Below are positions 5,624 through 49,432 of a stretch of DNA of 64,000 bases, one piece after another. Numbering within the stretch: position 1 is the first letter of the stretch; each line of letters begins with the position of its first letter. Origin of the DNA: Macrostomum lignano (taxonomy: Eukaryota); contig NIVC01002497.1 in the NCBI GenBank assembly GCA_002269645.1, forward strand, positions 104,282 through 168,281, in the 5' to 3' direction. The position numbers and the translations under genes were made by a program. The notes under the pieces are model-generated. The model saw nothing but the letters and a program-made list of their open reading frames with translations, was not told where the DNA came from and did no database searches.

Positions 5624-8542
5624 TTCTTAGACTTAGCTGCAGGGCTGTCCCGAAGGGGACACAGCGGGAAGGCTCGGGCGCCCATTCCGCTAGTCCCTGA
5701 ACGGCCGACGCGTCGCTATGGACGGAGGGTTGGCGCCGCCCAGGGAGGTCCCCCAGTGTCGCCAGCAGCTATGGTGCTCTCTGGAAAGGAGAGTTCAGCC
5801 CTGCGGGTGGCCCGAAGGTAGCGCATGAGCTGATTAAAGTTTTCGGGTTTGCACGCTTCAGTAATAGATGTGTGTGGCCCGAGGTAAGTGAGTCTGGCCC
5901 GCGTGAAGGCGAGACAGATGCTGACGAAATGCTCAGCGGTTTCGTCACCTGAGTTGCAGAAACTACAGGTGGCGTTGGTGGCGTTGCCCTGCAGGTACTG
6001 GTGCCTGGAGAAGCAGCCGTGACCAGAGAGGGTCATGGTGGCAGCCCGGATGTCTCTGCGCGAGAGGCGCAAGAGGAGCTTCCGGAGCTGGTGAGAGGGC
6101 TGAGGGACAGCGCCTCTGGATTGCCTGCAGTTCGTGCGGTTCGCCCAAGTCGAGCGGTGCTGAGTCCTGATCCACGCTTTGATGCGCGAGTCGATGACAC
6201 AGCCAGGAATCGGGACAAGAGGTTCGGGGCCGAGAGAGGAGCCGGAGGCACCAACTTTTGCAAGGGTGTCAGCCAACTCATTTCCTCGGATCCCCACATG
6301 CCCCGGAACCCACTTAAGGGTAATTTTGTTGGCGGAACCCAACATGTTGAGGAGTTTGATACAGTCGAGGACTGTAGCAGAGTTGGTGCTGCAGCCACTG
6401 ATGGCGTGCAAGGCAGCTTGGCTGTCCGAATGGAAAATGATGTTCTTACCAGTAACGCCAGTGGCGAGAAGCTCTGCAGTGCAGGAGCTGATGGCCAGAA
6501 CTTCATTTTGGAAAACACTGGAGTTGACCCCAGTGTATTGAGCGTGGGTAGCGATGACCCTCCCGTTCAGAAAGATTCCAACACCAAAGCCGGTGTTGGC
6601 TGACTGCTTAGAACCGTCGGTGTAGCAATGAAGCTCACCAGGGTTCCATTGGTCATTGATTTTATCGCGCGAGTCGATAGCTACGGAGTAGCGCTGTCTC
6701 AGGTTGAGCGTTGAGGCAATGCCATCGGTGAAGACGCGATTGGCCTGACACTCGTTGAGAAAGTTGAGGCACAGATCGCTATGCGGGACAAGGTTCCGCT
6801 TAGCAGGTGCTCTCATGTAAATGAATTTGACGCCGGCATCAATTAGACGCCGCGTCGTTCTAGCCGCCTCACCCCTGATGAAGAGGTCAAGAGGCGGAAG
6901 ATTAAGGAAGGCCCCCATGCCAGCAAAGGGCGTGGACCTGGTGGCGTTGCAGATGAGCCTACACGCTCTGCCTTGGATCGTGTTGAGCAGGTCTGCATGG
7001 CTTTTGACCTGGGTAGCGCTAACCCAGACAACAGAGGCGTACGTAATGGCAGGTCTAACTACGGAAGTATAGATCCACCAAAGCCGCTTTGGGGATAGAC
7101 CCCAAGAAGTGCCAAGTGCTCGTCGGAGCTGGGCCAGGATGGCTGAGGCACGCTTGGCTTTTGCTTTCACGTGGGAGGACCAGTTGAGCCGGTGGTCAAG
7201 TATGACCCCGAGACATCTGGTCTGGTGCGCGAAGGCAATATCTCTGCCGTAGAGCTGCAGAGGACGTATGTTCCAGCGTAGTCTGCTGGTAAACATAATG
7301 GCAACGGTTTTGGGCTCAGAGAGTTCCAGACCATTGTCATTGGCCCAGGATTCTGCTTTGCGGATAAAGCTCTGCATCAGATCCCTGAGCGTGCTGGGAG
7401 ACGGTCCTGCCACAATGGCCGTGACGTCATCAGCATACCCGACTTTGAAGACGGGGTCGGGTCGGGAGTCACTCAAAAGAGCGTCCATGACCAGGTTCCA
7501 GAGCGTCGGGGTGAGGACTCCGCCTTGGGGTCCACCCTTACAGACTCTGGTGGAGGCAGTTTGCCCAAGAAGTTGGGCAGTGACCGTACGGTTGGAGATC
7601 ATGTACATGATCCACCGTATGAGGGTAGCATGAGCTTTGCGATTTTGAAGGGCCCTCTGAAACGCTTCAAAGATAACGTTGTCGAAGGCGCCAACAATGT
7701 CAAGAAAGAGAGCCAGAGCGTAACCGTCACCCAGTACCGCCCTTTCAATCTTCTCGACAATCGCATGCAAGGCGCTGTCAGTCGACCTCCCGGTACGGAA
7801 GGCGTGCTGATTATTGCTGAGGGGCATCGCTGTCAGCTCGCAGGACAGCAGCCGCCAGAGAATAAGCCTCTCAGTGAGCTTAAGCATTGCTGACGTTAAG
7901 CTAATAGGCCGGAAGGCCTTGACGCTTTGGTAGTCACCCTTCCCAGGTTTGGGAATAAAGACTACCCGAGCTTCAGTCCAGCATTTGGGAACGTATCCCA
8001 GCTGGATAGAGGCCCGCATAAGATTGCGGGTGAGTCTCAGGAACGAGGGTATCTTGGCTGCTTCACGAAGGAGAACAGGGTAGATACCATCAGGTCCAGG
8101 AGATTTGAAGGGTTTGAAGGTTCTGACCGCACGAGCGATTAGGTCTTCAGTGACAATGCCCGCCGCTAGGGTGGCTCCATCCATCGAATGGTTGGGCTCC
8201 GGTCTAGCAGTAGGTACCCTCGGGAAGAATGTGCTAAGCATATGCTGAAGCACTTCTTCAGGGTCTTTAGTAAGAGAGCCATCATCTTTTTTGATCATGG
8301 CTAATTTGGACATTTTGTCCATTGTAAGGGCCTTGACAAGCCTAGAAATAGGTCTGTCTTGATCCAATTCATTGCAGAATTGGCGCCACTTACATTCCTT
8401 GGCCTTGCGCACTTCAGATTTGAAATTGCGGGAGGCTTGCCGGAAAAGCTCCATGTCCTCCGGGTTTCCGGTCTTCATGGCACGGCGATGAAGGCTTTTG
8501 GCCTTCCGCCTGAGTTTCCCCAGCTCCGGGTTCCACCACGGC
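5624..8542 (-). mobile_element. 5'-truncated non-LTR retrotransposon, I-group/LOA-like (RT, RNase H, C-terminal Cys/His knuckle)
   Basis: Open ORF with KSPGPDGIYP, FRPISL, FLDIVGAFD, PQGGVLTP, GYADD, YTDGSK, SDSQAA, WVPGHVGIRGNELAD and CSFC...EHFVSIC. No APE domain. Candidate 11-bp TSD AGATGAAAGGC at 5613-5623 and 8543-8553. Clade assignment is from motif resemblance only. Confidence 0.9.
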
Positions 8543-8762
8543 AGATGAAAGGCAACAGAGGATAGATGAGGGGCAAAAGAGGGTAGATGAAAGGCAACAG
8601 AGGGTAGATGAAAGGCAACAGAGGGTAGATGAGGGGCAACAGAGGGTAGATGAGGGGCAACAGAGGGTAGATTAGGGGCAACAGAGGGTAGATGAGGGGC
8701 AACAGAGGGTAGATTAGGGGCAACAGAGGGTAGATGAGGGGCAACAGAGGGTAGGTGAGGGC
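8543..8762. repeat. About 21-bp minisatellite, right part of the array split by the LINE
   Basis: Same unit and orientation as 5336-5623. Confidence 0.93.
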
Positions 8763-9340
8763 ACATTCAATCAGTCAATAATCAATAATCACTAGTCAAC
8801 AATCAGAAGTCTCCAGCATTGAGAGGGCTGCAGCGCATACAGCAAGCTTAATTTTAAAGCAGCGGTTGCTAAGCATAAAAAGTACGATCGTTTATTAATT
8901 AAATCATCAGAGATTTTATAGAATTACCAACCAATTTCAAAGTTCCGAAATATGACTTTCTATTTACACTGCATCATTGAGTCAATCGCTCATAAGGAAG
9001 ATATTCAAAGCGGGTGAAGCCATTATTGTACATCGAACTATAGTCAGTTGCCAGGTGCAGTCAGAGCTACTCGACCCTATTGGCGCCGTTGCCGTGGTCG
9101 TCCTTTCCTATAAAATCGAAGTCAGGTGGGCGGAGGCCACAGGGTAGCCGGTTGGAAATTTTCAAAAAAAACACGCAATTGGTTTCAAATTAAAATTGGA
9201 TAGACATTGGCGATAGAATTTAAATAAAAATAGGTAGCTAGCGACTTCTGATAGAACATACTGTACTTTTGGACCTGCACGGCTTGCGAGTGTACTGCGT
9301 GTCCTTCATGTTCCAGCTGTCCATGACTGACTGTATCAAA

Positions 9341-25271: not shown

Positions 25272-26359
25272 CATCCGTCACCAGTAATAATTCTACTTTA
25301 AGTAGCTTGATTGATTTTTAAAGACAATATTCCACATATGTATATCGTTACTTTCTATAAACAATGAAAATTGCTAATCTTCAGTGACTTCAGTTATTTT
25401 CAGGTGCATGCAGTTTATCTTAGAAGTATTATGTATAATATACAGTAAGTGTAAAAGATTTTATACATATTTTCAGTATAAAAAGAAATATAAAATATTT
25501 CTGTTGCCTTTTGATCGTTTAATTATAACTTCTCTTCTAAGAGCTGAAGGGATAGACAGTCAGGAAACTCAGAAATATATGTGCTTGTACAGTGTCAAAG
25601 TCAAGTATACTCATATTGATGCATTGTCTGAAGTCTGATTGTGATCAGCAAAATTCTAGTTTTGACTTTTAATAATGATTTCTAGACTAAAAAGCCAAAT
25701 AGTAGTTGAATAAATGATTGACAGTTTGCATCCCTATCTGGCAGTGCAGGGTACAAATTGTCACTGATCACATGTTGAACTGATCGAACGTTTCCACGAA
25801 CATAGCACCCCATGCCAGTCGCATTTCTCATAGTGATAATAATGTACCTTGGATTGCTAAAGGAACCCTCTTTATTGTATCTAGTGTCATGGCGATCATC
25901 TCAATAGGCTGTGTGAGCAATATCAATATCCTTCTCAATAATCTTCAAGTATTCTGCTTTCAGTGCATCTTCGGCTCAATGGTTTCAAGATACAGTTCCA
26001 CACCAGCAAGTTTAATCTCCATTGTTGTATAGTCAAAGTCCAAATTTCTCATTTCGATCATCTCTATATACCGGTAGTCAACCTAAATGTGTAGCTAAAG
26101 TTGCTTGTCAACGCAGAAACCACCCAAACATCTCTAAGGTAACGAGTAGAAAAATATCAACAGACCTAAACAGTGGATTCTTAGCAGCATCGGTTGCACC
26201 CGCAAGCTCATAATCATAATTTGTTTTCTTTTCATATAACCGGGGTCATCAACATCCCCTTTCTGCTCATTGGGGATGAAGCCAGCTCCACTCCCAACAA
26301 CAACAGCAACAACAACAACACCCGCTGTGCTTTACGCGCAGCCTGCGGCCCGCCCGCAG

Positions 26360-26429
26360 CTCCTACCCGGCGCCGCGTCTTCGTCGCGGAGGGGAGCCCC
26401 TCTCTTGGAAAGGGGTCGAAGAGCGCCGG
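26360..26429 (+). ncRNA. Candidate HDV-like self-cleaving ribozyme in the LINE leader
   Basis: Manual fold gives P1, P1.1, P2, P3, P4, L3 UCUUCGU and J4/2 UCGAA in canonical order (details in findings). Confidence 0.65.
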
Positions 26430-28975
26430 AAAACGGACACTCCGTCCCTCGTGCTTTTGGTTACTTGGATTGTTATCTTTCTCTGCAGCGCGTACCTGGA
26501 CCACGGGAAGTTCGGCAGCGAGGCCCGCCACCTTCCCACGCTGCTGCTCAGGGCCGGTGATATCGAGCTTAACCCGGGACCCACTCTCTGCGGGCAACGT
26601 GAGTGCGGACGCCCGCTCAGAGGGAAGTCCCTCCACTGCCGCATCTGTGATAAGTACTACCACCTCCAACGCGACTGCTCCGGGCTGAGCAGATGGGCGG
26701 CTAACAAAGCCATCGGCTCCACCGAATGGCGCTGCTTTAGCTGCACGAACCGAGGCAGCAACGCCGTTAATCCCCCTAATTCCTCCGACTCGGACAGCCA
26801 GCCAGAGGTGGCCCCTACAGAAGTCGCTGATGAAGTCAGCCGGCGACAAGAACTGCTCCAACGCATCCAACGAGACAAGCCGAACTGTACCCACTGCCGC
26901 AAACCCATCCGAATCAGCACCGTTATTGCCTGCTGTAACACCTGCCAAGGTTTCTTCCATAATGCTTGCACCCAGGCCACCCGGGATCAGATTAAACGCG
27001 AAGTCAGCAGGGGAATGTGGCGCTGCCCTCCTTGCTCGAAAGCAGCCAGCCTTAGTCCACCCTCCCCCTCGGGCTCGGACCCGACCATCCCGAGGCGCGG
27101 CCGCTCGGCTCCCGGATGGGACAGCTCGAAACCGACCTTAACCATTCTGCAATGGAATGCCGACGGGATCGGCAACAAGCTAGGGGAGCTGGAGGAACTA
27201 GCTCAGAGACTTCAGGTCGATATCATCACCGTCCAGGAGTCCAAGCTCACGTCGCTCAATCGAACCCCTAAGCTGTCAGGCTATACCACTGTTCGCAAGG
27301 ATCGCAAAGTAGCTAGGCTCGACCCCAGCATCAAAGGAGGAGGACTGTTGCTCTTCGTCCGCCAAGGCATTCCGTATCGTAAAATCCAGGGCTGGAACGG
27401 CGGCACCACTGAAGGGAGCCGTATCGTCGTGAACACGTCCGCCCGCGACAGACTTATCATCACCAATATTTATCGCCCCCGATCCGGCGTATCGAAGGCG
27501 AGGACCACCGCTGTCGACCTGGCTACCACCGCGAGATCATCACGGGTGACTTTAACCTGCACCACCCATCCTGGGGGAGCGACGCCGACCAGGGCCGGGA
27601 CAGCCTGCCTCAATCCCGTTGCCTTATCAACTGGTGTTCCTCTACAACTACCGGATACTTAACTCCGGAACTCACACCTGCATCGACCGTCACTCAGGGC
27701 GCTCCAGCGCTCCCGACCTCTCCATTGCCAGCCAGGAGATCGCCCCCCGCTGCACCTGGTCCACTCTTAACGAACTTGGATCGGATCACAAACCTATCCT
27801 GATCTCTATCAGCACTGCGCGGACACTCTTCGAGCGACACCCAGATTCCACTGGGCTTGGAAAAAAGCCGACTGGTCTCAGTTCAGGTCCATTCTTGAGG
27901 AAGACTGTGTACACCTCAACCGAGGTTCCATCAAAAAACAGGTCAGCCGGCTTACCAAAGGTATGCTCAAAGCGGCAGAGCTGGCCATCCGCGAAAAAGG
28001 TCTCCATCAAAAATAAACCGTACTGGGATGACGAGCTGAGCAAACTGCGTAATCATCGCAACGCTCTCCGTGAAGCCGCCGCCCCGCCCGAGGAATGGCG
28101 CGCTAAAAGCCAGGAGCTTATCAAGCGCTGCGGCGAAAAGAAACATGAATTCTGGAAGGACTGGATCCTGGCCGAATCCGAGGACCCCAAAAAGGTCTGG
28201 AACACCATCAAATGCCTTAGCAACGGCAAACAAGCGGCCCACCCTAACGAGAGCCTGGTCGTAGACGGAAAGGAACTCTGTACCGACAAGGACAAAGCCA
28301 ACGCCTTCGGCAGATATTATGAAGACATTAGCACTCTGAAGCACGACGCCACCCACCGCAAATTCAAGGTGCAAACGGCTACTGCCTAGCCTCCTATGAG
28401 GCGGACGACGACAACTATCGCCGTGACTTCACCGAGGGTGAACTGCTCAGAGCTATCCACAGACTTGATCCCAGCAAGAAATGCGGCCCCGATGGCATTG
28501 AAGCAGCGTTCTTTCTGCACCTGCCCGACCGCTGGAGAGCCGCGTGGCTCAAGGTCTTCAACCGCTGCTGGCGCACTGGACACTGCCCTGGCCCCTGGAA
28601 GCAAGCTATCATCATTCCTCTGCTCAAGGAGGGCAAGGACCCAAGGACCGAAGCAGTTACAGACCAGTTAGCCTCACTTCCATCTGCTGCAAAATACTCG
28701 AAAGACTCATTCTGGACGCGCTTTACTACTGGCTGGAGCGACATAGAAAGATTCAATTATGGCAAGCAGGCTTCCAACGAGGTCGGGGCTGCGAAGAACA
28801 GGTCGCCCGCCTGGTCCAGGCCATTCAAGACGGTTAGGAGCGTAACCCGCATCTCAAAACCCTTGCCGTGCTCATAGACTGCTCCAGAGCGTTTGACAGA
28901 GTCTGGAGGGCCCGACTCCTCGCCCGGATGATGGACGAGGGCCTTCCCGCCTGTATGGTCAAATGTTTGACAGTT

Positions 28976-29387
28976 NNNNNNNNNNNNNNNNNNNNNNNNN
29001 NNNNNNNNNNNNNNNNNNNNNNNNNNNNNNNNNNNNNNNNNNNNNNNNNNNNNNNNNNNNNNNNNNNNNNNNNNNNNNNNNNNNNNNNNNNNNNNNNNNN
29101 NNNNNNNNNNNNNNNNNNNNNNNNNNNNNNNNNNNNNNNNNNNNNNNNNNNNNNNNNNNNNNNNNNNNNNNNNNNNNNNNNNNNNNNNNNNNNNNNNNNN
29201 NNNNNNNNNNNNNNNNNNNNNNNNNNNNNNNNNNNNNNNNNNNNNNNNNNNNNNNNNNNNNNNNNNNNNNNNNNNNNNNNNNNNNNNNNNNNNNNNNNNN
29301 NNNNNNNNNNNNNNNNNNNNNNNNNNNNNNNNNNNNNNNNNNNNNNNNNNNNNNNNNNNNNNNNNNNNNNNNNNNNNNNNNNNNNNN
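28976..29387. other. Assembly gap (412 N) flanked by a duplicated ~365-bp overlap
   Basis: 28611-28975 is repeated at 29388-29754, differing by a few single-base indels and substitutions. Confidence 0.92.
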
Positions 29388-31639
29388 ATCATTCCTCTGC
29401 TCAAGGAGGGCAAGGACCCCAAGGACCGAAGCAGTTACAGACCAGTTAGCCTCACTTCCATCTGCTGCAAAATACTCGAAAGACTCATTCTGGACCGCCT
29501 TTACTACTGGCTGGAGCGACATAGAAAGATTCAATTATGGCAAGCAGGCTTCCAACGAGGTCGGGGCTGCGAAGAACAGGTCGCCCGCCTGGTCCAGGCC
29601 ATTCAAGACGGTTAGGAGCGTAACCCGCATCTCAAAACCCTTGCCGTGCTCATAGACTGCTCCAGAGCGTTTGACAGAGTCTGGAGGGCCCGACTCCTCG
29701 CCCGGATGATGGACGAGGGCCTTCCCGCCTGTATGGTCAAATGGTTTGACAGTTTCCTTGAGGGCCGCCAAATTGCCGTTAGAATCGGCGCGACCACTGG
29801 AAAATGGCGCCGGCTCCGTGAGGGAGTCCCGCAAGGGGCTGTCAGCTCGCCGGCCCTCTTCCTTCTCTACGTTAACGCCTGGTCCGACTACATGACGGCG
29901 AATGTCGAATATAGCGGCTACGCTGACGACATCGCACTCTGGACGACGGGCCACGACATCCGAGAGCTCCTCGCTCGCACTCAAGATGCGCTCCAGAAGA
30001 TCGAACAGTGGGCAGATCACCTGCGCATTGACCTAAATCCATCCAAGACCGAGTGCTGCCTCTACAGCAGGGACCGCGCCGACTGCGACCGCGCTCTTCA
30101 CCTCTCGCTGAACGGCCACTCGATCCCCTCCAAGAAAGAACTGAAGTTCCTCGGGGTGTGGATAGACCATGGCCTCCTTTTCGATAAGCACTCCAACTCG
30201 GCCAAAGAGAAGATGACACGGAGAACCGCCATCATCCGCGCGCTCGCCCATCGCGAATGGGGCTGGGACCGCGCCCTGCTCCTCCGGGTTTATCGAGCAC
30301 TCGTCGAATCGGTGGTCTGGCACGCTGCTGCTGCCTGGACTCCATGGCTGTCCAGTACCCGCCTCGACGACCTGGACCGCGCTCAAAGAGAATCCCTCAG
30401 AGCCATCACGGGATTGCCACGCTCGACACCGGTGGAAGCCATCTATATGGAAACCAACGTCAGCCCGATCAGCCTCGAAGCCGGCCGTAGGGCCCTGATG
30501 GCCTACGAGAAAGCCAACCGCCGCCCGGCCGACGATCCGTTCCGGCAGATCTGTGACAGGCAACTCAACACCCGGCTAGCGGCCAACAAAGGGCTACGAG
30601 AGCAAGCCAGAGCCATCTGCAACGCTATGATCCCTCTCCCGCGTCTGCCTATACCTACGACCCGCAACCCCCATGGGACTCGCTGGTTGATTGCGGGGTG
30701 CAGATGTTCACCAAACTCCCCGAGCATGAAGGATCTGCGACCGAGGCAGTGCTCTCCGCGATTGAGCAGCGTTGTCCCGACGCAGCCCTCTACTTCACTG
30801 ACGGTTCAGTCTCAGGAGGCACCACCAACGCGGGATCGGCCTGGATCCTCCTCCGCAAAGAAGACGGCACTATCATCCGCAGAGGGCACGCGGCAGCAGG
30901 CCGATGGTGCAATTCCTACGAGGCCGAGCTTAATGCTATCACTCTCGCGCTCCAGGACATCATTGATTCCGCTCCCGCCTGCGCCGCCATCCTCACGGAC
31001 AGTCAAAGTGCCATTACCGCCATCCAAGCCGACCGGCCCACACTGAACGCGAGGCTCGAACTAGCGAAGGCCCTCCTCGTGACCGTGGCCCATAGGACCA
31101 AACTTACGCTGCTCTGGGTTCCCGGACATTCGGGGGTGCACGGCAATGAACTCGTCGACACAGAAGCTAAAGTCGCAGCGACTCTCTGTCAAGATCAGGT
31201 GCTCATCTCGCTCCCCGCCTCCAAGGAGCGGATCTACCATCACATTAGGTACCAGCCCGACCTGCCAGGACACCTGGAGGTATACCGCACCCGGTGTCCC
31301 CAGGAACGGGCACTCGTCGGCAGCAGACGCTTATATCCCAAGTCAGATCCGGCCATTGTCCAGAATCATCCTACTATCGTCACCGAACAGGCATCGCCGA
31401 AGGAGGGCCATGCCGGCTTTGCAATCAACCGACTGAGCAGTTCCATATTCTCCATTGTCCTAAGCTCGAACTTACTCGACGCACCATCGGCGTCACTAGC
31501 ATTGGTGGCCTTGCACGAGGAGATGTAGTGGCGCAGCTCCTGGGGGCCATCGACTGGCGGCCCCTCTGAGCTCATCTCCGCAAACAACAACAACAACAAC
31601 AACAAAGTACGCAGCCCCCAATGCAAGGTCACAGTTAGA

Positions 31640-32925
31640 GCAGGGTGCGTCAGATGGCGCGCCGCAGAGCCTGAGAGCGGACGAAGTCCGCCCGTTTGGC
31701 AGTGTCACACAGCAGACAGTCCACGTATCGACGGGTTTGGGCCTGACCCCGTCTGAACAGGCCCTGCAAGATGAGCAGCAGGACGTTCTGAACAGGTTGG
31801 GGGCAGTAGCCCTCGGGCCGGATCACGTGGCCCGCCAGTTGAAGTCGCCACCGGCGCAGGATGATGGACGGGCGCTGCAGTTTGGCCGATCGTACATCGT
31901 CAGCTCGAAAGGCCGCACGGAGCAGCCCTGTGTGCGCCGAGTCCAGCTGCCGCTCTAGCGTAGCCGTCAGCGTCCACGTCTCAGCGTTGTAGAGCAGTCG
32001 GGCAGCGCTTCGGACTGGACGACGGCCCGATCAAGCGAAGGGCCGCCCAGGCAAGTCCTCTGCACCGCCGGAGGTCTTGCTCCACGTGGGGCACCAGACC
32101 GCCGAGGTAGGTGAACCGTTGGCAGCGTGCGAGCCTGGTCATCTGCCCGTCTGCGCCGCGGCGCGTCAGGTCCGCTGGGATGTCGGCCGGCACAGTCAGC
32201 ATCTCGGTCTTTAGCGTGTTGACAACCAGACCGACTCTCGATGCAACCTCAACCAGCCTGTCGATCTGGCGCTGGGCGTCTTCAACGGACGAGTACAGGA
32301 CGGCGAGATCGTCGGCGTAGCCAAGCACGCTTAGGCGCTTTTCGCCGTGGCGGTGACCGATGCGTCTGCGCAGCAGGAAGCCGTCGTCAGCCGAGGGGAG
32401 TGCGGTCCAAAGCACCCTGTTCAGGAGCAGCACGAAGAGAAGCGGCGCCAGCGTGTCGCCCTGTAGAACTCCTGACGAAGTATCGAACAGGTCAGACAGG
32501 CCGTCCGCCGTCACCACAACAGCTCGAGTGTCGCGATACAGCGCCATTACAGCGTCGGTTAGCTGCTGGGGTACCCGGTAGGCTCAAAGGACAAAGGGGA
32601 GCGCGGCTCTTAACACCGAGTCAAACGCCTTTCGAAAGTCAACGAAGACAATGATCAGCGTAGACTGGCGGATGCGCGCCTCCTCGATGACACGGCGGAG
32701 TGCGAGGATCTGTGTCACTGTGCCGCGTTGCGGCCGGAATCCGTTCTGCTCGTACCGCAGACGATCGAGCAGCAGCCGGTTGAAGAGCTTCGCGGTGCAG
32801 GACATCAGCGAGATCCCGCTGTGGTCTTCTTTCCGCGTTGCCCCTGCCTTCTTCGGGATCAGCACGATGTGCGCGACGGTCCACTCGGAGGGCGCAGGAG
32901 CGCCGACGAGCACGCGGTTCATGAC
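31640..32925 (-). mobile_element. Truncated, decayed RTE-clade LINE (RT domain), tail-to-tail with the Ingi-like element
   Basis: IVLIPKK, GISLMSCTAKLFNRLLLDRL, QNGFRPQRGT, FVDFRKAFDSV, GVLQGDTLAPLLF, GYADDLA; in-frame stop near 32584. Confidence 0.85.
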
Positions 32926-33043
32926 ACCTGCTGCCGCTCATCTAGAAGACGCCGGTTTCTGCGGAGTCGCTCGATGTTGAGCCGCGCCTGCCTGATGACT
33001 CTACTAGATAGGCAGCGATTTCTGCGCTGGCTGCATCAGCGGG

Positions 33044-33084
33044 ACCCGGATTTCATCCACTTCCCAACTGGATGAAATCCGGGT
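33044..33084. repeat. Perfect 16-bp inverted repeat with a 9-nt loop
   Basis: ACCCGGATTTCATCCA-CTTCCCAAC-TGGATGAAATCCGGGT. Confidence 0.9.
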
Positions 33085-37789: not shown

Positions 37790-40408
37790 CTTGCATATAA
37801 AAAACGAAAACATTTAGGCGTATACTCAAAATGCTATGGGCGATATAAAATATTGAGATGTTTTATAATTGTGATTCCATTTTCACCTTTCTGTCTTTGA
37901 TAACTCTATCTCTACATATATATTTTTCCCTCTCGGGTAGAGCGCTTCTCCTTTCTAGAGATCTTCCTTTGGGAAGGGGTGTCAGCCGAAGGGATGGGCC
38001 CTTGGGCGGCCCCCTACCCCCTCTACATGTATCTAGTGCAAGCTACGCTCGTAACTTTATGCTGCCGGTACGAGTAGAAATTCTGCAAGCAGCTTTCGGC
38101 AAGCAAACTTCCTGCCAATAAAATTCGTAGTCCCCTATCAGCGCCCAGTTGCTAACGGGAGCTAAACAGAAGAATTGACAAAAACCAAGCGAGAAAAGTG
38201 TTTAGCAAAAATTTTAGAAACACTGAAAAACTGCAAAAACGAAGAATAGAGCTGAACACCGTATTTGCGTATGTATTACTTGGAAACAAATTAACTCAAA
38301 ACCGTAGTAGACAACTAACAAAAACTTAAGTATGAGTTATAAAAAGTTAAGCTAATTGAGACAAATGCGTTACATTAAAAGCTTGTTTTTAGAAGCCCCA
38401 GAACTAAGTTTTATTACAACTACATAATTATGGATTAATGAATAAAAAGAACGCAGAGTATGAACAGCTTATTAAGACCGCACCGGTCAAAGTATTGGTA
38501 AAAGTAATGAGTGGAGAATTACAAAAAAACAAAATAAACGAGAGAAAACGCTGGTACAACACAATGCAAATCGACCAGACTTAAAAAAGTACTTAAAGAA
38601 CTCTCAAAGAAATCGACTATATGTAGCTTATGTGTATGAAAACTGCAAAAACAAATGTAATAGAGCTGAGCACCGTTTTTGAGCAATGCAAAGTTGCGTA
38701 TGTATTACTTAAATTTGAAAACAGTAGTAGAAAACTAACAAAAAGTTAAACAGAGTAAAAGGTAAGAAAAGTTAAACAAAATGAAACAAATGCGTCACAT
38801 TAAAAGCTTAATTTCAAGAGCCACCGAACTGAAGGTTTATTAAAACTAAAAAAACATTATAACACCGCACCAGTCAAAGCATTGGTACTAGAATAAAAGT
38901 AATGAGTGGAGAATTACAAAGATTACCGGTTTCATAATGACTTGGAGGTTGCTAAATCAATGAAAAACCGGATGAAAACGAGAAAACGCTGGCACAACAC
39001 AACGCAAATCGAACTGACTTAAAAAGTACTTTAAGAACCTTTCAAAGAACTCAAGCGGCGTACATCGGTAGTACAGCTAAAGAACTCAAAATGTCCAATC
39101 AAATATCTTTGCAGCAGTTCCGCTTGTGCTCCTGATAGCCCTGACAAAAATGTTCCTCCACCAAAAACTCTCCAAAACTTTATCAGTCAATCCAACTGAT
39201 TTCAATCATTCAATCAACTCAAAGCACTCAACTGTCGCGATTGGCTCAGAGGAAGAACAGCCGGTCGCAAATCTGCGGACTCGGCTCCTCCATCAGGTTC
39301 TGGCCGACCAGGTACGCTAGCCTATGAGCGTAGTGACACGGCGCTGGCACGCGAATCGTGCCGGGCCAGTTAAAGTACAGGTGGGTCAGCTTGTACGTCA
39401 GCTGCTGCACCTGGTCAGGCTTGATGTTGGCGTCATTCACGTCCTCAATCATGTTGTAGTGAGTCGGCGTGACCGTGCCCTGGTTCACGTACTGCGACAC
39501 CAGGAAGAAGTCCACGAAGTTCGGCATTGTGATCACGTCGTCCAGCACGGTGCCGGGGGCCGGGTTCCTCAGCTGGCTGCCCTGCTTGCGGAACATGCGA
39601 GAGCTGACCAGCTTCTTCACCACAATGGCCTTGAAGCCGAGGCTGCTCATGCGCTCGCCGTAGATTTTCGACAGCGACTGCTTCAGCTGGAGCAGCTCCG
39701 AGTTCTTCACCTGCAAACGGGAATAACAACATAAATTATAATTTCAATTTCAATCAACTAATTGAGCCAAAACTCACCTCCTCCAGCATAGAGTCGCCCA
39801 CACCGTCGCGGTACAGGATGATCCGGGTAGGCAGGTCGCCGTTCTTCTCTCTGAATTTCTGCAGGGCCAAGTTGAAGCCGACCTCCAGCCTGTTGTGCAG
39901 CTCGGCTTTGCCTCCCTTCACGATGGGCGAGTACGAGTAGTACTGGGTGAAGGTCTCGTTCAGCGAGAACACAATGCCTTGCACCGAGACGCTCTGCCGC
40001 TTGTCGTGATAAGTGTCCATCCCGACGATCATCGTGCGCTTCATCGGGATGCTCACAGCCCAGGCAACGCCGCCCAGCTTGCAGGAGATCTGCAGGGCCA
40101 CCTTTGTGGCAACCGACATCACCTTGGCCGGGTTGCGGATGGTCTTGGTCAGAACGCACTGGCTGGGGACCGGCTTGTTCACGTAGCACAATCGCTTGAT
40201 GGAGTCGTAGCGCTGCTTCTTGTTGCTAGGCAGCAGGCAGAACACCAGGTCCAGGCCTTGGTCGATGTTTTCCTCAATCGTCTTCACCCACAGCTGGTCT
40301 CGGTCCTGCGCCACTGCCAGCACGTAGGGCTCGCCGAACGACATGCCGAGTGACTGCGAAGCCCGACTCAGCTTCTGGCAGAAGTCGGCGGCCGCCTGCT
40401 CGTCTCGC
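37790..40408. repeat. Left arm of a large inverted duplication (partner 59067-61250)
   Basis: The reverse complement aligns by eye to 59067-61250 across piwi exons, one intron, the 3' UTR and the downstream flank. Confidence 0.92.
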
Positions 40409-42112
40409 TGGGAGTACACGAAGATCCAGTTCTTGCAGTTCACCGGCTGAAACATGCCGTTGCCCTTGAGAGCATTGTCCCAGTCAGCGCGCTCAGGGTC
40501 CACCCTGATGGGTTTAGTCATCTGGACAGTCTCCGGAGCCAGCTGGCGGGCGGTGGCCTCCACAGCGTTGGGCGCTACCGCCAGGCCGAACTCTCCCAGC
40601 ACCCGCTGGCACTCCCGGTTTTGGGCCATTGTGCTTGCAAATTTCACCAGCTTGCCGCACCGAGTTGACGGGTCAATCCGAGTGAAGGTGGCCAGGTCCT
40701 TCATCAGGTTTCGGTCGGCCCGCATCTCATCAGTCAGACCGGTCATAAAGCAAACCTCTGGCGGCAGAAGAACGTTCTCAGCCTGCTCTCGGCGGCCTCC
40801 CTTAGTCGGCGGCAGATCTCGCTTGCGCGGCTTCGACATCAGAATCGGCTGCTCACTGTCCGACAAATTGACATTGTACGTCTGGGCGAAGTACTGGGCC
40901 AGCGAAATCTCCTCGCTCTGGCGAGTGCTCTTATTGTACCTGGGGAAGGTCTCAGTTACTCGCTTATCCCATTCGATTGCGTCAATACGGTACGTCTTGT
41001 TGTTGTGCCGCGTGAGCACTATCTGCCCCACCAAGGCGTCGGTGGCTGCGGCTTGGAAATTGCCGGGATTGCGATTGTACATGTCGTACATCACATCCAG
41101 AACCGTGCTCATGTGGATGATCTTGTGCGACACGTCAACATGCAGCATCAGAGGTCCGTCAGACGGCTTGATGGCCATCTCGAAGCCGGGCCACACCTGG
41201 TAAAGGCGATCGAAGAATATTGAGTGGGATTGACAGCTTGAGAACAAATTTCAATTGCAACTAAAGTTAACTGCAACAGCAGAGCAAACCGCTTACCTCC
41301 ATGCGATGCTGTGGAAGCTTCGTCGCTTGGTCGGGGTAATAAAAGTTTCTGCCGACCATTTGCATGTTGAGGTGGCTCTGGGTTTTTCCAAGCACTACGT
41401 TCATCAAGTGCAACCACTGAGGTGTGTTCTTTTCGATGACGCCAACCTGTCTGATGGCCACTTCTCCGCTCCACGACTTGATGCTGGCAGCAAACTTTAC
41501 TCCCTCGGCAGGCGCCAGGGGCTGCTTGGTGTACAGGCAGCCGCCATCGTAAACAAACGGCTTTGGCACCTGCTGGGCATCGTTCAGCAGCTTCTCGCGC
41601 AGCGGCTTCGCGCCCAGCATCGGGCGAAAGTCGGCGGCCAGCTGGTAGGCGCACCATTTGTCCTCGGTGTTGATCCGAACGAAATTCGTCATCACCTGTA
41701 CCGGGGCTCCGCTGCTGCCCTTCTTGCCCGCAGCTCCCTCCGGCCGAACATTCGCCAGCTGGAAGCGCAGCAGCTTTCGTTGTAGGCCGCCTCGGTCGCC
41801 GCTGGCTTCGCCGCCAACTCGCAAGCCGGCCATGCGCTCAGACAGCTGGCCCGGATCTCCGGCCTGCTGCGCAGCACCGCCACGTTCGACAGCGCGGCCA
41901 ACACCGCGTCCAGTATTCTGCTGGTCCCCAGGTGGACCAGCAACACCAGCTTGAGCACTCAGGCCTGGTGGTGGAGCTGGACGAGCAGCAGCGACTGGGG
42001 CAGGGGCTGGAGCTGCTGGAGCTGGGGCGAAGCTGGCGCCAGACGAAACCTCCTCAGGGCGTGGGCCTGAGCGACCTCGGGCACGACCGCGGCCTTTAGG
42101 CTGTTGAGACAT
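39246..42112 (-). CDS. piwi: Piwi-clade Argonaute, 3 coding exons, 899 aa
   Basis: Exons 42112-41297, 41196-39778 and 39710-39246 with phase-0 GT-AG introns. N-terminal GRGRARGRSG (sDMA-type RG motif); PAZ (TYRIDAIEW...FLPPE-like LLPPEVC); MID (RYDSIK, PSQC, CKLGG); catalytic D (VGMD), E, D (YRDG), H (YAHRLA). Confidence 0.96.
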
Positions 42113-45326: not shown

Positions 45327-48300
45327 CAGGGGCGTAGCGAGGGGGGTATCGGTGTATCGGCCGATACCCCCAAATTTCCAAAGCAAAAATTTTTTTATTT
45401 ACTTTTTTTAGTTGCAAGTGACCGTTAAGGAAGAGAAAGGTATCCGAATTGATAGAATAACAATTAACAAACGAATAGAGTGATTATATGTAATAGTATC
45501 ATTAATAGCTTGTATGCATTAGAAATACATTAAGGCCTAAGGGGATGTGTGGATCTCAAGTCATTTCATTGCTTTCTTTGTACTCGTATAACTTGGTCCT
45601 TGGACAACTATCAACTATCAACTCATTCTCCCAACCGACCAACCAACTATTAAGGGGTGAGGGGGGTGAGTGGATAACCGAGGGGTGGCCGGGTGGGACT
45701 GGGGCGTGGCCCGTGGGCAGTCTGCCAGCTGAGCCAGTGGAATCAGTGATGAACGATGGGGTGGGTTGCCTGGCCAGTTTTCGCTGCAAAATGCATTAGC
45801 TTCTGAATTGTTTGAAAGAAGTCTGTCTTGAATTAACTAGAAATTAAAATTCAGGGGCCAGGGGGTGAAGGGTATATTATGTACAGAGGAGAGAACTAGA
45901 ACTAGAAGGAAAGAAGGAGGAACTAAATAGGCATGTACATTAAGAAAGACTAAGATGAGCATCTACGTCTGCCTGCTGACCCCACCATCCTGAGAAGACT
46001 ATAAAAAGGGGAAGGAATAAGGAAAGAATTAACTATAACCTCGCCTCCTCCAAGCCGTTTATTCTAAGGCCGTAAAGCCGTTTATTCTAAATCTAAGGCA
46101 GATTTTTTTATTTCTGGACTGCTACTAAAGTCTGCAAAAGAGTTCATGTGGAATTCAAAATGAGCAAGCGAAAATCTCATGGTCATGATATCCGCTCATT
46201 ATTTGAGAACTTAAAGCGGTCCCGCCCTAACCCTGATCCTGCGCTACTGTCTACGCCTAGTTCTAGCACTACACAGCCAGATTCATCTATTGTGTCTTGT
46301 GACACTGCTACTGGCAGTTTGCCCGACTTGGCTACTCCGAATTCAGTTCCAACAGCTCCCGAGCAACAACTGCAAGCTACTATTACTTCTTCAAGTCAGT
46401 TTGACGAGTCTGATCTCCAACATCAAGCAGATGAAGCAGCTGCTGAGACTGAGATCAATGTCAATGACATCGGCTATGCTGTTGAGCTTCGTCGCGATGG
46501 AAAGCTGGATACAGCTACTCGACTGCGATTCCTTAAGGACTGTTGGGTGCCCCCACAAGGGTACTCATTCCCGTTCACGCTTAAATCTGATAAGGGCAAT
46601 GTCCACAAGCGCTACTTGTCTCACCAACATCTAACTGGTCGCAACGCATGCTTTGCGTATTCTGCTAAGCTCGGCGGCGTATTTTGCAAGTAAGTTAGAA
46701 GTTAATGTGAGTTTATTGATGTATTGCTAAATTGTACTCTTGACATCTGGATCTGGTCTTGAGGTACATGTATGGACCACAGATACTAGAACAACTCTAG
46801 TATCTAGTATCTAGTATCTAGTGTTCTAGTATCTGTGGTATGGACTTAATGCTCACTCCTACCATTCTAACCATTTCTTTCTCCTTTAGGTATTGCGTTT
46901 TATTTCTTCCGACCAACTTTGCCATCCATGGACAAACAGTCGATGCCTTTGTGGGAACTCCATGCACTAAGTTCGATGTCATCACAACAAAGCTGAAGAA
47001 ACATTTGCAATGTGACTACCACAGAAGTGACTCTGTGATCAAAGCCGATGCCCTGCTATCTGGAACGAATGTTGGCCACATGCTGGATGTCAGTCGCGCA
47101 AAGCTAGTGAAGGAAAATAGGGAAAGACTAAAACATGTAATTGAACCAATTGAATTTCTCGCTCGCTGTGGTCTGGCTTTTCGAGGACATCGTGACTGTG
47201 GACCTATAAAAGTTCATCCAGATGGAACTATTGACTATGATAAAGGGAACTTCGTCGCGCTTCTGCAGCTTCTCGCAAAACATGATCCTATTCTACGTGA
47301 ACACATTTGCACTGGACCATCAAATGCCAAATACACTTCCAGTGAATCACAGAATGAAATAATTCAGGCTCTGTCTGATGTTATCACCCAAGATTTAGTA
47401 AAAAAAATCAACAAAGCAGGCTACTTTGCGCTGCTTGCAGATGAGACTACGGATTCTTCGCACAAAGAACAGATGTCCATCTGTGTTAGGTACCTCGACA
47501 TCAGTGATGGAAGTGTAGCTATTCACAAAGAGTTCATATACTTTGTTCACGTTGAAGATTTGACTGGTATCGGGCTTGCAACAAAGCTTCTCGAGACGCT
47601 CGATTCTCTCCATATTACAGCACAACTTGTTGCTCAAGGCTATGATGGAGCTTCAGCCATGTCTGGCAAGTTCAATGGCGTTCAGGCAGTGATTCGCGAG
47701 CAGCTGGGAAGAAAACTAGCAATCTATGTGCACTGTGCTGCGCATAATCTAAACCTGTCCCTGCAGGATGCTTGTAAGCTAGATTCAGTTCGTGCCGCTA
47801 TTACTGCTGTTAATACAGTCACAGTCTTCATTCGTTCATCACCGCAAAGAACAGCTCTGCTTGAAAAAAAAATGAAAGAGCTGGTTCCGGAGTCATCTGT
47901 GCATCAACTTCTACAGCACTGCAAGACCAGATGGGTTGAGAAGCAGGAGGCTTTCATCCGATTCAACCTGCTCTTCCCAGCAATCATTGAAACTCTAGAG
48001 AAGATCAGCACATGGGGAGGAGAGGCAGGCAGCAATGCTCGAAACAACCTCAAACTTTTGCTAGACAGCGAATATGTTATTGCAGGCCACATCATCGATG
48101 CCGTTCTCACCATCACCAAGCCATTATCAGAGAAATTGCAGTGTGTAGATCTCGATCTTGTTGATTGTGTCAATGAAATTAAGGCTGTCATCGATGTTCT
48201 TCGAGATCTCCGCTCTGATGATGGCCATGTCCGTTACAATAAGATATTCGATTCTGCTGAGAAAGCACTCGGCGAGCCACTACAAAAGCCTCGAACCAGT

Positions 48301-49432
48301 GCCAGGTGTCGACAGAAGCATCGTGCCAACCCCGATGTCTCCACGGCACGTGATTACTTCCGCATAGCAATGTACAATCCATTCCTGGATGGGATAATTG
48401 CTACTCTTGAGGAGCGCTTCAGTTCTCATGCGCAGCTTGCATTCCAGATGGCACGACTGCTTCCTCAGAGTGTTGTTGACGAAAGTTTTGACAGCGTGAA
48501 GAAATCGATAGAAATTTACATCGGACAGTTACGAGGATTAAGCTTTGTGGACGACATCGAGGCTGAATTCTTGCTATGGAAAAAGCGCTGGCAGAATGTC
48601 GATCAAAAGGACAGACCGCGAAGTGTGCTCGAGACGTTGGTAAATTCAGCTGTTAGCCTCCAGAGCTTTCCTAACATCCGGCTTCTACTACAAGTTCTGG
48701 CGACGATTCCCGTCACCACTGCAACTGCTGAGCGATCATTCAGTCAGCTTCGTCCACTGAAGTCGTACCTACGTTCTACAATGGGACAGGAGCGACTGAC
48801 AGGATTGGCCCAGCTTCTAATCCACAAGGACATGAAGCTGGACATTGATAAAGTTATCGATCAGTTCGTACAGAATGGGTCTCGTAGAATTGATCTGTAA
48901 GTACAAAGTTAAACTTTTAGACAGCAAGTTTTGATAGGCCTAGATTGAGTATGCGTAACATACATAACTAATCACAATACGAGTAGAAGATTACATGTAC
49001 ATTAAATGTAATAATATAGGAACAAAAACCAAACTAATACAATAAGAGCTTGCGCATACTATTATATTCTCTATTAATCAAAATGCTATAAGTGAGCTAT
49101 ACTTAGTATTCTACATTTCTACTTCTTGTATTGTCCCATATGATGTAAATGTGAAATTTGCTCTTTGATATTGAATAAATAAAATCAATATGGAAGGTTG
49201 GTCACTGCGTTATTTGCTTGGAAAAGTGTTGGTGATTTGATAGAAGTTGAAATAATTTCGTTTTTTCTTGCTTTACGAATATGAATTACGAGTATATACG
49301 CATATACAAATATGTACACTAAAAGTCGTTTCATGAATTAAGCCAAGCCGGAAAAATGCACATGTAATGAGTGAAAGTAGACTGATAACAGCTAACCGAT
49401 ACCCCCAAAAAAAAATCCTGGCTACGCCCCTG
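45327..49432 (+). mobile_element. hAT DNA transposon, 4106 bp, apparently complete
   Basis: TIRs CAGGGGCGTAGCSAGG; perfect 8-bp TSD GCCATGGC at 45319-45326 and 49433-49440; internal transposase gene. Confidence 0.95.
46160..48900 (+). CDS. hAT transposase, 2 exons, 846 aa (TTF-type Zn finger, DDE core, C-terminal dimerisation domain; ZMYM1/THAP12-like)
   Basis: Exons 46160-46689 and 46890-48900 join as GVFCK|YCVLF. Motifs LADETTD, GYDGAS, CAAHNLNL, TRW, AERSFS. No stops or frameshifts. Confidence 0.9.

Follow-up and report, generated by a model that had tools for sequence, protein, structure and literature searches.

Trypanosome retroelements of the L1Tc/ingi type contain a single ORF for APE endonuclease, reverse transcriptase (RT) as well as RNase H with an N-terminal 2A, and have short derivatives with internal deletions (PMC3185411, PMC3383444, PMC4035085). 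Their HDV-like ribozyme cuts before the first C and has a P1.1 helix of 1-2 bp (PMC3185411). A 5′ ribozyme and bipartite non-autonomous derivatives are also listed for Ingi elements (PMC5786205). In animals, the 2A of Ingi-1_AC from Aplysia shows >97% skipping, and 2As have been reported in Ingi, CR1, Crack, L2 and Rex1 elements; some members of CR1 and Crack carry PHD fingers after the 2A and ahead of APE (PMC3708506). Ingi-1_AC and other 2A-bearing APE LINEs have no ORF1 and carry the 2A 40-80 residues from the N-terminus (PMC3708506, PMC3894237). Down-regulation has been argued as the role of the LINE 2A (PMC3894237); the accessible portions of both papers propose down-regulation or separation of upstream functions rather than release from a host fusion, and ribozymes and target phase go unmentioned there. 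R2 elements also bear an HDV-like ribozyme, which releases the element from a transcript shared with the host and is believed to serve as an IRES (PMC6765202), but they insert into non-coding rRNA, have no 2A and have no host ORF to feed them. Two questions stand open in this literature, namely why LINE 2As lie near the start of the ORF and how uncapped, ribozyme-headed RNAs are translated.

Here we describe a LINE of the flatworm Macrostomum lignano, found in a 64,000-nt stretch of contig NIVC01002497.1 (hereafter the window), together with its relatives in the genome. Judged from its sequence, it shares with L1Tc/ingi the features given above, and with the other 2A-bearing animal LINEs the lack of an ORF1 and the position of the 2A. 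It differs from L1Tc/ingi in that its ribozyme has a helix P1 interrupted by two hairpins, a pair of PHD fingers comes after the 2A, one subfamily is AUG-less, the target is a CAA/CAG repeat and the reading frame crosses the ribozyme in the phase that reads this repeat as polyglutamine (polyQ). A first-pass annotation of the window had drawn the trypanosome parallel, and we do find a subfamily without AUG, A1, within a design of the L1Tc/Ingi type, with a 5′ HDV-like ribozyme and a single ORF that has an N-terminal 2A and RNase H. The combination of ribozyme and 2A is already published for Ingi elements, an animal one included. The new part is the phase lock and the in-frame SINEs: these retrotransposons and their short derivatives sit in CAA/CAG repeats and are stop-free in the polyQ frame. 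A search of the literature outside subscription journals and Repbase reports found no paper on a Macrostomum Ingi ribozyme, and none on retroelements in polyQ phase or on a 2A that releases a protein from fusion to a host.

Architecture of the element

The LINE (∼4.5 kb) lies at 26321-31605 of the window with CAA repeats on both sides, and encodes APE (27141..27830), RT (28430..30560) and RNase H (30787..31180; PF00075, E 4e-13) on the + strand, the ends of these regions being approximate. They form a single ORF, without ORF1, whose majority reading frame is open for 1,464 codons in subfamily A1 and 1,468 in family A2. The stop codon, a 15-nt 3′-UTR and a (CAA)7 tail occupy 31567..31605 (+). 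Upstream, the target repeat (26295..26320, +) consists of 8 CAA/CAG units plus CA and reads as polyQ in the 2A/ORF frame. With its single ORF, ribozyme-headed 5′ end and bipartite non-autonomous derivatives, the element is, judged by these features, an Ingi-like LINE with a predicted L1Tc-type HDV-like ribozyme. The RT shares 96% identity with a UniRef protein that bears the label Macrostomum lignano and, by eye only, most resembles Ingi-1_AC among the RTclass1 sequences of a paper supplement. No named Ingi protein was among the 135 protein matches and the RT tree therefore has no Ingi reference; a PDB search gave distant matches only. Possession of both RNase H and a 2A argues against a Vingi assignment, since Vingi elements, to our knowledge, are without RNase H. 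For the 2A, the sections available of one survey report none in Vingi elements (PMC3708506).

Searching the genome at the protein level yielded 87 matches. Seventy loci were examined, a set that was selected by a regular expression and includes allelic contigs and three refetched places; 65 of them carry the 2A motif and represent 19 families. Three further loci (family K) carry a canonical core that the pattern missed, and a tight pattern search returned four loci already known and nothing further. Judged by their flanks, the six 5′ loci of subfamily A1 represent three independent insertions.

The window copy itself is a dead end. An in-frame TGA at 26277-26279 precedes its target repeat, and thus no host ORF feeds the element; the RT stop TAG at 29613-15 is common to all three contigs of the insertion, so that the copy is dead. 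Most of its 1-nt frameshifts do not recur in the other two contigs, the 1-nt gaps in the APE region, present in this contig alone, are likely assembly errors, and the N gap at 28977-29388 arose in assembly, the sequences on either side of it overlapping by ∼365 nt.

The 2A/StopGo motif, LLLRAGDIELNPG followed by Pro, is encoded at 26541-26582 (+) inside the open frame 26280..27662, with the predicted skip between 26579 and 26580. Its core, DIELNPGP (26559-82), fits D(V/I)ExNPGP and is the sole [DGCN][VI]ExNPGP in the six frames of the window, against a chance expectation of ∼1e-4. The context upstream is Leu-rich (LLLRAG), resembling the LLLLSG-like group of 2As (PMC12846837), and the 15 upstream codons show a dN/dS of 0.26 (p=0.049). 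Poor conservation among copies would have spoken against the motif; it is canonical in 58 of the 65 motif-bearing loci. The motif also occurs in 10 of the 135 database RT proteins. By itself, a 2A motif is no guarantee of skipping activity (PMC3708506).

The statement that the motif lies directly before two PHD fingers holds for the first one, a C4HC3 finger at 26589..26744 (+; Pfam PHD E 0.0025, sub-cut-off; dN/dS 0.19), which adjoins the motif; the second C4HC3 finger (26886..27035, +) lies ∼100 codons farther on. Both are PHD-like, their Pfam scores of 18.2 and 23.8 bits being slightly below the cut-off of 24. Four database proteins from other organisms (P0004, P0031, P0041, P0056) combine 2A, PHD, APE, RT and RNase H, and this predicted protein layout is widespread.

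The presumed ribozyme at the 5′ end gained the backing of covariation. It is predicted as an L1Tc-type HDV-like ribozyme at 26321..26429 (+), with P1 formed by 26321-23 plus 26360-63 with 26388-94 and split by hairpins 26324-42 and 26343-59, P2 by 26367-74/26421-29, P3 by 26375-77/26385-87 (L3, 26378-84), P1.1 involving 26395-96, P4 at 26396-26416 and J4/2 (CGAA) at 26417-20. Sixteen distinct 5′ ends fit this HDV-type double pseudoknot of nested P2, P3, P1.1 and P4 with a C in J4/2, P4 having been folded separately for each copy. In them 94.7% of cells are paired and both sides have changed in 19 of 33 pairs; slid controls gave 39-53%, and 0 of 500 shuffles scored as high, a control inflated by the relatedness of the 16 sequences. 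Covariation extends to P1.1 (U-A/A-U, C-G/U-A), which, like that of L1Tc, is 1-2 bp long. Instead of being contiguous, the 7 bp of P1 are split 3+4, and its three terminal pairs show no covariation within group A. The split recurs with different letters in families E and J, and an uninterrupted P1 in K keeps to this register, predicted structures that support it; the 5′ ends of families E, F, H and J were set by eye from helix pairing. Rfam gave no match to the region at the gathering score nor at E up to 10, because P1 is split. A literature search of incomplete coverage found no paper describing such a P1, which would extend the HDV family. Plain folding of 26321-26582 gave a z of -0.11 and a minimum-energy fold other than the pseudoknot. 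The ribozyme would cut just 5′ of 26321, at the 5′ end common to copies, an indirect sign of self-cleavage.

Two other observations concern the ribozyme region. Two A2 insertions (L009, L010, L011) lack the same 16 nt, a deletion that takes away the 3′ half of P4 together with the catalytic J4/2, and nonetheless keep the normal 5′ end. At four loci (L096 and L098 of family H, L090 and L061 of family D) the L3 position appears to be just a 3-nt loop, possibly a reduced ribozyme variant.

Reading phase of LINEs and SINE-like derivatives in the CAA/CAG target

The first-pass annotation had placed the start of the ORF after the ribozyme. We found the 2A frame open back through the whole ribozyme and in phase with the target, whose CAA/CAG run it reads as polyQ, which points to an entry route other than the one proposed there. 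Under a fixed rule applied to all fetched loci, which are not independent of one another, a CAR run lies upstream of 35 2A loci; 23 of these are in polyQ phase, with 7 and 5 in the other phases. Counted by family, 13 of 16 are in phase, or 10 of 13 when close relatives are merged (p=0.0016). The in-phase families are A1-A6, D, E, F, H, J, K and the family in L183, with A2, A4, A5 and K in phase solely in indel-free copies and scored on those; phase is broken in A7, D2 and I (one copy each). The tally excludes G, with a two-unit run, and B, C, L052 and L100, with no CAR flank.

By their RTs, the phase-tested families are deeply separated lineages (30-72% identity), and their 5′ regions measure 175-244 nt. 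Among them the predicted cut site takes different phases, being 1 in A, D and K, 2 in E and J and 0 in F and H, and families E, J, F and H rule out a constant phase relative to the cut. As the cut-site phase varies while the repeat phase holds, entry from upstream is favoured over a start fixed to the 5′ end. The 5′ regions of 16 representatives contain 2 stops in the ORF frame, against 9 and 16 in the remaining two (p=0.002). The frame is likewise open from the second base in families B and C, although these have no CAR flank. With 5 of 8 families in phase (p=0.09), the 3′ ends make a weak negative control. A metagenome scan with P0004 found no locus.

The same frame is kept by four ribozyme-headed SINE-like families, S1 (247 nt), S2 (241/244 nt), S3 (226 nt) and S5 (462 nt). 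All return to the polyQ frame (3n) and have 0 stops in it and 14 in the other frames; for four families, phase alone gives p=0.012. At 17 of the 21 S1 sites the insert is 247 nt and stop-free, and four sites lie in open frames with >250 non-repeat codons. A stop or an indel interrupts some copies (4 of the 21 S1 sites, L168, L183, L170/171/174 and the S1-related copy in L004). Short elements derived from family B, which have no CAR flank, show no return to the polyQ frame at four loci. On S5, no selection at the peptide level was seen.

Several insertions lie inside identifiable ORFs. In a homeobox ORF (L260, G000:C106), S5 and S1 are nested in the polyQ tract and add ∼258 residues in frame, with the native stop kept; contigs L261 and L262 hold the empty site. 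S5 also lies in frame upstream of another homeodomain (L224, G000:C1375), which we take to be NK-like, and S1 lies in frame within the ORF of a CD20-like membrane protein (L247, G000:C619). Full-length LINEs are fused in frame to foreign ORFs too: E (C711) within a multicopy 304-aa ORF and J within a multicopy ORF, both with empty copies seen, and K (G000:C221) with 113 open codons before it and >550 after. In the homeobox flank of L158, 154 codons proved to be another SINE instead of host sequence.

Initiation in the AUG-less subfamily

The annotation's remark that no in-frame ATG lies between the ribozyme and the motif was correct, and in fact 26321-26692 holds no ATG whatever the frame. Met first occurs in frame at 27015, inside PHD finger 2, and four ATGs, none in frame, lie upstream of it. 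Because contigs of two other sequencing runs show 0 differences over 26329-26700, the missing ATG is no assembly error. The proposed GTG start at 26451 found no support: it is simply the first ATG/GTG/TTG downstream of the stop at 26277, and other near-cognates lie ahead of it in frame (CTG 26325, ACG 26334, CTG 26343, ACG 26433). In sister family A2, moreover, an ATG stands in frame three codons ahead of the GTG, which argues against a start there. The A2 ATG corresponds to CCG 26442-44 in the window copy, within a GGAC...GTCC hairpin (26435..26447, +) found downstream of the ribozyme in families A1-A7. This codon is CCG in two A1 insertions, ACG in the third and GCG/GTG in A3, and families A3, A5 and A7 have an in-frame ATG within the P4 loop. 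Overall, 11 of 19 family representatives keep an in-frame ATG 11-60 codons ahead of the 2A core, so that the AUG-less state of A1 is a minority one. Leaders contain 12 ATGs in frame and 7 out of frame, compared with 5 and 26 downstream (p=0.0016); this enrichment implies that scanning-type starts matter in many families.

The GTG and the U-rich stretch after it code for LLVTWIVIFLCSAYL (26451..26498, +). The hydrophobic stretch seen in the first pass is present (26454-26498; 13-residue hydropathy 3.1); its function as a leader found no support, as only 3 of 19 families (A1, A2 and the distant F) are hydrophobic here, and its dN/dS of 0.52 (p=0.38) is not distinct from neutral, compared with 0.11-0.26 elsewhere. 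Sea-urchin NLR 2A signal sequences also place hydrophobic residues ahead of the 2A (PMC4981915), there in 26-aa N-terminal peptides, whereas the stretch described here ends 19 codons before the core and is unconserved; with no AUG and hydrophobicity in 3 of 19 families, a signal peptide of the SpNLR2A type does not fit A1. Families F (L080, L099) and G (L095), with an AUG and then a hydrophobic helix leading into the 2A, are more like those signal peptides than A1 is.

The pattern of substitutions indicates that AUG-less A1 was still translated, since across its three independent insertions changes are skewed towards synonymous ones (68N:91S, against a neutral expectation of 71-74% N). The skew extends to the region upstream of the first Met (13N:15S, p=0.002-0.006), and is borderline there on the CCG-bearing branches alone (7N:7S, p=0.05-0.15).

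The motif, the missing AUG, the open frame, the family-wide phase lock, the purifying selection on AUG-less copies and the in-frame insertions can be read directly from the DNA. They suggest that the AUG-less LINE may be translated from the start codon of a host polyQ ORF, the 2A then releasing the LINE protein, a proposal we judge evenly poised between right and wrong. Source copies would land in polyQ-coding exons, and the host start codon would drive translation through the CAA/CAG repeat into the frame of the element. Ribosomes would have to pass through the ribozyme before cleavage, a skip at the 2A would free the PHD-APE-RT-RNase H protein at its Pro from the host N-terminus, and later cleavage before 26321 would liberate the template. 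Families that keep an AUG probably use a second route. The model calls for slow or partial cutting, as a fast cut would take the host start away; the efficient co-transcriptional cleavage shown for the L1Tc ribozyme counts against such reading (PMC3185411). The model also requires source copies to be rare, because the in-frame ORFs around the three full-length A1 insertions are all short (14, 27 and 9 open codons, the stop of the window copy lying 14 codons up) and just 14 of 57 junctions have the polyQ frame as their longest upstream frame, a count that rules out most insertions lying in coding polyQ. Reading as a host extension would explain both why LINE 2As are N-terminal and why an AUG can be dispensed with, and to the questions left by the cited papers the phase lock offers a simple answer, a borrowed host start codon followed by a skip out of the fusion.

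Alternatively, ribosomes may start internally at a near-cognate codon on the self-cleaved, uncapped RNA, aided by the ribozyme, the 2A trimming a short leader and throttling output. We hold this to be possible but less probable than entry from the host start, alongside which it may operate. If initiation is near-cognate, the best candidate would be ACG 26433 (26433..26435, +), more likely than GTG 26451: it has a strong context (A at -3, G at +4), occurs in A1 only (relatives have TCG/CCG) and is present in all six A1 5′ loci. Retrotransposon HDV-like ribozymes are reported to aid IRES-like initiation (PMC6765202, PMC13725137), and Leu-rich 2As to reduce protein abundance (preprint PMC13405545). 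No special insertion site is needed, families B and C are open from base 2 without a repeat target, and the 11 families with an in-frame ATG have it in or just past the ribozyme. However, a near-cognate start predicts neither the phase lock to the repeat, nor the avoidance of stops inside the ribozyme, nor SINEs that are 3n and stop-free, and no near-cognate codon is common to the AUG-less families.

That the phase lock reflects chance, shared ancestry or host tolerance of in-frame SINEs, and says nothing about LINE translation, appears unlikely to us. The families are not fully independent, representatives were partly chosen as indel-free copies in an assembly with many 1-nt errors, and the phase of the four SINE families by itself gives only p=0.012; but the unselected count remains 23 of 35, and 5′ lengths vary widely across deep lineages. 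Host tolerance fails to explain the phase of the LINEs, because a LINE truncates the host protein in any frame.

A cap and start codon could also come from a spliced upstream exon or from the flatworm spliced leader, which ends in ATG, and this we consider very improbable. M. lignano trans-splices ∼30% of its genes at [T/C]TNCAG (PMC8629364), and an acceptor-like CTGCAG at 26483-88 fits this motif, with a matching word in A2. Such a word is expected ∼0.2 times per 120 nt (hand estimate), A3-A6 have no U-rich tract, and a junction at CTGCAG leaves the leader AUG out of frame, closing at TGA 26558-60. Contigs of four runs, of low depth and only guessed to be RNA, span 26488 without a joint or a spliced-leader end and carry no weight either way. 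Least probable of all is a loss of the start in A1 with mobilisation in trans, or initiation at Met 27015, which would leave out the 2A and PHD1: all sampled copies have lesions and only out-of-frame ATGs precede 27015, but substitutions on the A1 branch are strongly synonymous across the ORF, upstream of this Met too.

Extended to the derivatives, the host-start proposal becomes a joint reading that we put forward tentatively, at a little under even confidence. A LINE clade and its SINEs would be adapted to polyQ-coding repeats, the LINEs being read through their own ribozyme and freed by StopGo, the SINEs acting as frame-preserving inserts of 75-154 residues in host proteins, homeodomain factors included, and the ribozyme having a four-way-junction P1. 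Retroelements would have a route by which whole peptide cassettes enter polyQ tracts in developmental regulators and leave them unbroken. Among mobile sequences, inteins and Rickettsia palindromic elements also keep the host reading frame open; here, in contrast, the inserts are ribozyme-headed SINE-like retroelements aimed at animal polyQ repeats.

Inverted copies and neighbouring elements

Some copies are 5′-inverted (L013-L016, L018 and L025 of A2, L175-L177 of A4 and L180 of A5). In these three families the break lies at almost one position, 134-138 nt from the 5′ end and just past the GGAC hairpin. From there the copies continue into the target repeat on its opposite strand, a pattern resembling twin priming at a fixed position.

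Members of the LINE family often insert into one another's tails. In the window, a second, broken RT element, RTE-like by eye, lies at 31606-33080 (-) inside the CAA tail of the LINE described here. A Polinton identity for the window flanks was considered and dropped, as Pfam gave it no support. The window also contains a further RT plus RNase H frame of 1,016 codons without 2A motif (5716-8766, -), a PAZ-Piwi ORF (39754-41250, -), a hAT transposase (46822-48900, +), pieces of an LTR-type RT-RNase H-integrase (54684-56268, -) and an actin-like ORF (62750-63877, +).
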